Origin: Chloroflexota bacterium
GTDB taxonomy: Bacteria > Chloroflexota > Dormibacteria > CF-121
DNA: 64,000 bases
Reading direction: 5' to 3'
Assembly: GCA_005880605.1 (NCBI GenBank)
Contig: VBIS01000160.1
Coordinates: forward strand, 10,180-74,179
The notes beneath the pieces are model-generated. The model made no database searches. It worked only from the letters and a program-made list of their open reading frames with translations, and was not told where the DNA came from. A program made the position numbers and the translations under genes. This document shows positions 15,833 through 17,189 of the stretch, one piece after another (within the stretch, counting starts at the first letter, position 1; every line of letters starts with the position of its first letter).

Positions 15833-17189
15833 CACTTTTTCAGCGGACCATCCGCGATCTGCACCAGATGCTGCTCGACCGCGAGATATCGTCTGTCGAG
15901 CTCACCGAGGCGGTCCTCGGCCAGATCGACGCGGTCGGCGAGCAGACGAAGGCCTACCTGCTCGTCACCCGCGAACTCGCCCTACGCCAGGCAAAGGCCG
16001 CGGACGAGCGGCTGCGGGCCAGACGCGATGTCAAGCCGCTGACCGGGATCCCGATCGCGCTCAAGGACGTCCTCTGCGTGAAGGACGTCGCATCGACGGC
16101 GGGTTCGAAGATCCTGAAGGGCTTTCTGCCGCCGTATAGCGCGACCGTCGTCGACCGCCTCGAGGCCGAGGGCGCGGTTTTCCTGGGAAAGACCAACTGC
16201 GACGAGTTCGCGATGGGCTCCTCGAATGAGAACTCGGGATACTGGCCGGTCCACAACCCCTGGGGACTCGACCGGGTACGGTCGGCGTCAAGCCGACCTA
16301 TGGACGCGTCAGCCGGTACGGTCTGATCGCCTTCGCGTCTTCGCTGGATCAAATCGGACCGATGACCCGCGACGTGGCCGACGCCGCGGTGTTGCTGCAG
16401 TCGATCGCCGGGCACGATCCGCGCGACTCCACCAGCTCGCAGAAGCCGGTGCCGGATTATCTGTCGAGCCTGCAGCGCGGCGTGAAGGGCATGCGCCTCG
16501 GCGTGCCGAAAGAATACTTCGTGGCCGGCATGGAGCCCGCGGTCGAGCAGGCGATCAACGACGCCATCCGGCTGCTCGAGCAGCAGGGCGCCTCAATCCA
16601 AGAAGTCAGCCTGCCTCATAGCGACGTCGCCCTGCCCGCCTACTACATCATCGCGCCGGCCGAGGCCAGCTCCAACCTGGCGCGCTACGACGGCGTTCGC
16701 TACGGGTACCAGGCCGAGGGTGCGAAAAACTTGATTGAGGAGTACGTGATGACCCGGCAGCAGGGCTTTGGCGCCGAGGTCAAGCGCCGGATCATGCTCG
16801 GGACCTACGCGCTGAGCTCCGGCTACTACGACGCCTACTACCTGCAGGCGCAAAAGGTCCGCACCCTGATCATCGACGACTTCAAGCGGGCCTTCGAAAA
16901 GGTCGATGCGCTGTTGGGGGCGACGTCGCCGACGGTGGCGTTCCCGCTCGGGGCGAAGACCCAGGATCCAGTCGCCATGTACCTGAACGACATCATCACC
17001 ATCCCCGCGAACCTCGGCAATGTCTGCGGCATCTCGGTGCCCTGCGGGCTGGCCGACGGCCTGCCGATCGGCCTGCAAGTCATCGCGCCGGGATTTCGCG
17101 AGGACACGGCCCTGCAGGTCGCCTATGCCTTCGAGGCCGCAGCCGACTTCCGCAAGCTCCAATCGCCGTTGATGCGGGCGGCCGCCTGA
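15829..17189 (+). pseudogene. gatA: Asp/Glu-tRNA amidotransferase subunit A with an internal out-of-frame deletion (~118 bp) that removes the amidase-signature catalytic serines. Disrupted gatA.
   Basis: The ORF from 15829 encodes the GatA N-terminus up to NPWGLDRV. Homology then resumes in the +2 frame at [31 protein letters not shown] and continues to 17189. About 39 aa ([15 protein letters not shown]...[17 protein letters not shown]) are missing. Confidence 0.7.

Follow-up and report, generated by a model that had tools for sequence, protein, structure and literature searches.

A 112-nt gap inside gatA of a soil Candidatus Dormibacterota assembly is very probably a lossy contig joint and not a pseudogene

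The window, by which we mean the whole 64-kb stretch of DNA that was analysed, contains the genes of a GatCAB amidotransferase, and its ORF layout places them in the order gatC-gatA-gatB on the plus strand. The two outer genes are full ORFs, and the middle gene is divided between two reading frames. The features of the operon are as follows:

15530-15832, plus strand: gatC, intact, 100 aa; an identical product with Pfam GatC occurs on three independent contigs
15829-16326, plus strand: gatA 5' ORF, frame 1, with GatA homology up to ...NPWGLDRV (base 16277) and nonsense thereafter
15829-16277, plus strand: 5' part of gatA, codons 1-149 and the first two bases of codon 150, K79 kept
16277-16278, no strand: gatA joint, 112 nt missing (residues 151-186 of GatA and a further 4 nt), with a change from frame 1 to frame 3
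16278-17189, plus strand: 3' part of gatA, T188 to the stop, frame 3, with homology from about 16275
16362-17189, plus strand: gatA 3' ORF, with a GatA-like extension upstream of it in frame 3
17189-18640, plus strand: gatB, intact, 483 aa; an identical product occurs on two independent contigs

The initial annotation, made from the DNA alone, had described an out-of-frame internal loss from gatA that removes the Ser-cisSer region, with homology stopping at NPWGLDRV and restarting in another frame. The ORFs, the matches to PDB chains and the DNA alignment all confirmed this, with the stop at base 16277 and the restart in frame 3. The statement that gatC and gatB on either side are intact was also borne out. 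The missing internal segment is a real gap in the sequence, but its size, which had been given as ~118 nt, needed correction: in DNA alignments against intact near-identical contigs it was exactly 112 nt, lying between 16277 and 16278. The missing piece consists of the last base of the V150 codon, 36 whole codons (P151-T186) and the codon for G187, and the reading frame changes because 112 equals 1 modulo 3. The sequence across 16277|16278 reads CTCGACCGGGTACGGTCGGCGTC, and the junction 30-mer at this joint is GGGACTCGACCGGGTACGGTCGGCGTCAAG.

Membership of the split gene in the GatA family is supported by its collinearity with solved chains on both sides of the gap and by gene order. In a phmmer search of all PDB chains, the product fused across the joint matched residues 2-149 and 185-477 of Pseudomonas aeruginosa GatA (4wj3_A, 1.3e-145), and other GatA structures gave the same two-stretch match with ~35 residues skipped (1e-145 to 1e-105). 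In tblastn, the intact GatA of one independent contig (L168, see below) was 100% identical to the window over residues 1-150 and 98.7% identical over residues 187-489.

Amidase-signature enzymes use a Ser-cisSer-Lys catalytic triad. In Staphylococcus aureus GatA numbering, we take K79, S154 and S178 to be the catalytic residues, and it is S154 and S178 that are lost here. The catalytic Lys (K79, motif IPIALKD) is present in the translation of the 5' ORF. The cis-Ser motif GGSSGGS and the nucleophilic-Ser motif (GSDTGGS) were absent from all frames of the window, and the window sequence as given therefore cannot encode an active GatA. Both Ser motifs were found in five of the contigs described below (L164, L166, L167, L168 and L081). 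No second gatA or other amidase was detected in the 64-kb window by tblastn with the intact GatA as query, and no glnS or asnS occurred among the Pfam matches within it. Searches for the missing 112 nt elsewhere in the window gave only chance matches of 13 nt or shorter.

Exact-protein look-ups identified numerous contigs of the same population in soil metagenomes, with 99-99.9% DNA identity. Their sources were CRIT18-1_SAMN089028xx scaffolds, several MEGAHIT k141 assemblies, JGI assemblies and one NCBI MAG. Exact look-ups of YggT and of a TrmA-like protein found neither on record, and in a GatB-motif scan of metagenome contigs the best match among those listed was 80% identical. The gatA fragments themselves (165 aa and 275 aa) had no exact record among 153 billion gene positions.

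Comparison with close relatives, which had been proposed as a check on the initial annotation, gave a uniform answer. The gatA joint is covered by six independent contigs (L163, L164, L166, L167, L168 and L081), which come from at least five metagenome samples and are 99-99.8% identical to the window on the flanks that they cover. The 112 nt are present in all six. L163 is 99.8% identical to the window from 5651 to exactly 16277, except for a divergent intergenic region at 11855-12021, and then runs on into intact sequence. L164 is 99.2% identical left of the joint and likewise continues through the intact segment. L166 is a 16-kb scaffold that spans the whole operon and encodes a GatA of 490 aa. 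L167 and L168 are MEGAHIT k141 contigs from two further samples; both contain the 112 nt and are ~99% or better identical to the window immediately on both sides of 16277|16278, which makes them representatives of the window's own haplotype. Farther downstream L167 is still ~99% identical, and L168 averages 96.8%. The nearest species representatives are two Candidatus Dormibacterota MAGs with 94% and 91% amino acid identity, and gatA is intact in both. The best 120 GatA relatives are 489-491 aa long, except for one of 477 aa, and the lesion occurs in none of these 120 closest proteins. The conclusion of the initial annotation that gatA is disrupted and GatCAB non-functional in the organism is not supported, the loss being private to the window and the six contigs intact.

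Outside the gap, the window gatA shows no other stops or indels. It differs from that of L166 in 20 synonymous codons and one non-synonymous codon, and from that of L167 in 12 synonymous and two non-synonymous codons. These counts show that gatA is otherwise under purifying selection, although this is weak evidence against a very recent event, after which dN/dS would stay unchanged.

The sequence immediately right of the joint has a feature of its own, seen in mismatch maps and alignment:

16278-16406, plus strand: stretch of divergent haplotypes in gatA; the window is of the L167/L168 type

In this stretch, at least three haplotypes occur among co-occurring strains; they are ~12% apart, almost all of the differences are synonymous, and the flanks are >99% identical. 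L166/L164 and L081 each differ from the window by ~12% here. The stretch resembles a short recombination mosaic inside gatA. Other assemblies of this population break inside gatA. Five contigs start or end inside window positions 16103-16466: left of the joint lie the end of L165 (16103) and the start of L081 (equivalent of 16144), and right of it L163 ends after 66 nt, L164 ends after 171 nt and L082 starts at the equivalent of 16466.

The gatA gap is one of several of its kind. The window was compared with other contigs of the population over ~46 kb (1-26317 and 31257-51148), and six private losses of 90, 92, 101, 111, 112 and 115 nt were found, spread over 16.3-42.7 kb. No private insertions or further gaps of more than ~20 nt were detected in these ~46 kb, except for a gene haplotype of ~873 nt at 42678. 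Besides the one in gatA, the losses are:

21856-21860 (~21858), plus strand: second loss, 90 nt in frame, in the finger domain of dnaE, 30 residues removed
23275-23276, no strand: third loss, 115 nt across the 3' ends of two convergent genes, dnaE and yggT
26131-26134 (~26133), no strand: fourth loss, 101 nt out of frame in a VWA/Bat-like minus-strand gene, by comparison with L166
34200-34201, no strand: fifth loss, 92 nt out of frame in a minus-strand gene without assigned function; intact in L169 and L170
42678-42679, no strand: sixth loss, 111 nt when compared with L170, which has the matching haplotype, with the 3' end and stop codon of the PAP2 gene removed

The 90-nt loss takes a conserved YQEQVMQ segment out of dnaE and splits the Pfam domain DNA_pol3_finger in two; the segment is intact in L081, L166, L001, L002 and L004. 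At the third loss both dnaE and yggT receive aberrant C-termini, and the dnaE ORF runs to 23375 over yggT. The segment missing there is intact in L166, and L081 also runs past this site, ending near 23.3-23.4 kb. At the sixth site the difference depends on the haplotype used for comparison, being 873 nt relative to L169/L173, which have an extra gene of 203 aa. The joints show only 0-4 nt of exact microhomology, and at one of them three bases are unmatched. The window contains no Ns. As judged from GC3, ORF layout and Pfam matches over the whole window, its remaining genes appear to be full length apart from these joints.

Several further observations concern the other assemblies. An extra minus-strand gene of 203 aa lies between the PAP2 gene and uvrB in L169, L171, L173 and L175-L177 (8827-9711 in L169) and is missing from the window (42678-42690) and from L170, a natural presence/absence polymorphism. 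At 9894-9906 there is a difference of ~78 nt, for which the window has the form common to L180/L181. The 873-nt and ~78-nt differences are natural haplotypes or artefacts of the other assemblies and not of the window. N-runs occur in sister scaffolds at other sites (170 N at 443-612 and 38 N at 15248-15285 in L166, 10 N in L169 and 37 N in L170); those of L166, L169 and L170 over- or under-estimate the true gaps, and MEGAHIT contigs end instead. At position 7077 of L166 (window 17878-17919) there is a gapless in-frame loss of 42 nt from gatB, giving 469 instead of 483 aa, and L163 has a private duplication of ~121 nt at 6205-6492, in the intergenic region between ligA and a sensor gene (window 11855-12021). 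A Dormibacterota MAG of the same population, L179 (GCA_005889525.1, VBHG01000053.1), is 99.2% identical to the window. Its N-gap at 1934-2011 splits a thiS-thiG fusion gene into two calls, and it is another case in which a gap in a deposited assembly of this lineage has broken up a gene.

One more apparently truncated gene in the window is of a different type:

4881-5426, minus strand: AhpC/TSA peroxiredoxin, with an in-frame TGA at 5265-5267 at the position of the peroxidatic Cys (FSPG*TNEL)

A frameshift was considered for this gene and rejected, the apparent truncation being an in-frame TGA. The TGA is kept in nine of nine independent contigs from this population and a related one, including one at ~94-97% identity and one NCBI MAG, and in each of the nine, gene callers cut the peroxiredoxin into pieces of 52 aa and 122 aa. 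Peroxiredoxins with selenocysteine are a known selenoprotein family, and the codon is probably a selenocysteine codon, which would make this protein a selenoprotein. A 7-bp hairpin begins ~13 nt after the UGA, with overall folding no better than that of shuffled sequences. No Sec machinery was found within the window, whose two tRNAs are both tRNA-Leu. Also on the minus strand is an ordinary Bat/MoxR-type cluster (23793-31858) with a MoxR AAA_3 ATPase, a DUF58 protein and BatA/VWA proteins, one of which has a GATase1-like domain.

Returning to gatA, the loss is private to one assembly, its site coincides with the ends or gaps of other contigs, and lesions of similar size recur in the same window. 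They recur regardless of gene importance, affecting gatA, dnaE twice, yggT, the VWA gene, the gene without assigned function and the PAP2 gene, and other assemblies break or have N-gaps in or near several of the loss regions, most clearly inside gatA. These observations suggest that the gatA gap is, with high probability, an assembly or scaffold-joint artefact and not a pseudogene, and that the gatCAB operon of the organism is most likely an ordinary and functional one. An assembly collapse had been the main alternative offered with the initial annotation; an artefact is indeed favored, but it is better termed a lossy contig joint than a repeat collapse. The window would then be a composite, put together by scaffolding or merging from metagenome contigs of a Candidatus Dormibacterota population in soil. 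In gatA, two of these contigs would meet directly, with no Ns between their ends, and the ~100 nt of real sequence that belong there would have been missed by the assembly. Contigs might end here because conserved amidase-signature DNA left of the joint, together with differing strain haplotypes, tangles the de Bruijn graph. As to the technical route, a scaffolder or gap-closer may have reduced a small gap to nothing, or runs of N may have been stripped later. Since the window has no Ns at all, we infer that its joints were either closed to zero length or had their Ns removed. SPAdes can join contig ends on short overlaps, and a merger of ends on a short spurious overlap was also considered; microhomology of 0-4 nt gives it poor support, and it is kept as one possible route. 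Some features would count against an artefact, namely the lack of Ns, the 0-4-nt microhomology and the narrow range of 90-115 nt. Both scaffolding gaps and local errors of assembly are documented sources of incomplete or incorrect protein-coding genes in MAGs (Chen et al. 2020, PMC7111523).

It might be argued that the deletion of 112 bp is real and that gatA is a pseudogene, rescued by a gatA paralogue or by GlnRS and AsnRS encoded elsewhere in the genome. The sequence as given is unambiguous, and the imperfect direct repeat in which the breakpoints lie, GAC(C)GGG, could have favored recombination of the slipped or illegitimate type. A paralogue is also possible elsewhere, as 64 kb of the genome was inspected and none lies in this window. 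We nevertheless consider this explanation very unlikely. Such a deletion would be private to the window at a site for which at least six independent, near-identical contigs are available, and it would have to be accompanied by five more private losses of ~100 nt, two of which take parts of dnaE (YQEQVMQ in the finger domain, and the 3' end). With no working GatA and a badly damaged Pol III alpha, a genome of this kind would be too handicapped to be credible in a population abundant enough to assemble. Moreover, gatA has no small indels or stops and a 20:1 excess of synonymous changes, and the sizes of the losses are tightly clustered, without the broad spectrum expected of natural decay. The five additional losses of 90-115 nt and the lack of decay in gatA likewise oppose the reading of GatCAB as non-functional. 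That a strain without the GatA catalytic core and with 30 aa missing from the finger of Pol III alpha persists at assembly-level abundance is highly improbable; if true, such a strain would have to make Gln-tRNA(Gln) and Asn-tRNA(Asn) by a back-up route that has gone unrecognised, or depend on neighbouring cells.

A related possibility is that the deletion is real but belongs to a minor or transient variant (for example from a defective lineage or relic DNA, or produced by homology-facilitated illegitimate recombination with a related strain) that was chosen as the consensus. Many haplotypes of the population coexist in the soil samples, and the 130 nt right of the joint look like a recombination mosaic among co-occurring strains. 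However, no foreign patch is needed to explain the window, because L167 and L168 are intact and have its haplotype on both sides. Six such variants would also be needed together within 27 kb, and none of the six was seen in any other assembly compared, which leaves this explanation with a very low probability. A chimera of two strains or species, with the flanks of the joint derived from different populations, was suggested by the first comparison with L081 (88% identity left of the joint and 99.5% right of it) and by L164, which differs at 7 of 59 nt just right of the joint. This possibility was rejected, and we give it almost no credence: L167 and L168 match the window at ~99% or better on both sides, and it is L081, L164 and L166, not the window, that carry the divergent stretch.

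If a deletion of this kind were true, it would be notable, as organisms that lack GlnRS or AsnRS cannot normally do without GatCAB. With a lossy joint as the favored explanation, the case is instead a caution that clean, N-free metagenome sequence can hide losses of ~100 bp that mimic inactivating deletions in essential genes. Calls of pseudogenisation, of loss of indirect tRNA aminoacylation or of metabolic dependency in uncultured phyla such as Dormibacterota would mislead if based on sequence of this kind. Independent assemblies of the same population expose such an artefact cheaply.

Compared with solved GatA proteins (PDB 4wj3, 3h0l and 2df4), the window has the same operon order, K79 and a collinear remainder; it differs in lacking residues 151-186, which include the cis-Ser and the nucleophilic Ser, and in its broken frame, and near-identical contigs have these residues. 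True decay, as in endosymbionts or of the Mycobacterium leprae type, is marked by mixed indels, stops, raised dN/dS and lesions shared by relatives or assemblies. The window gatA has in common with genuine pseudogenes of decaying genomes that it can still be recognised despite an internal lesion that breaks the frame, but it shows none of these signs of decay. With the assembly errors described in MAGs (PMC7111523) it shares an error on the scale of read length that is confined to one assembly and makes gene calls truncated or frameshifted, a site where conserved sequence and strain variation break the graph, and N-gaps in sister scaffolds. The difference is that the joints in the window carry no Ns, and the error is hence a silent one.
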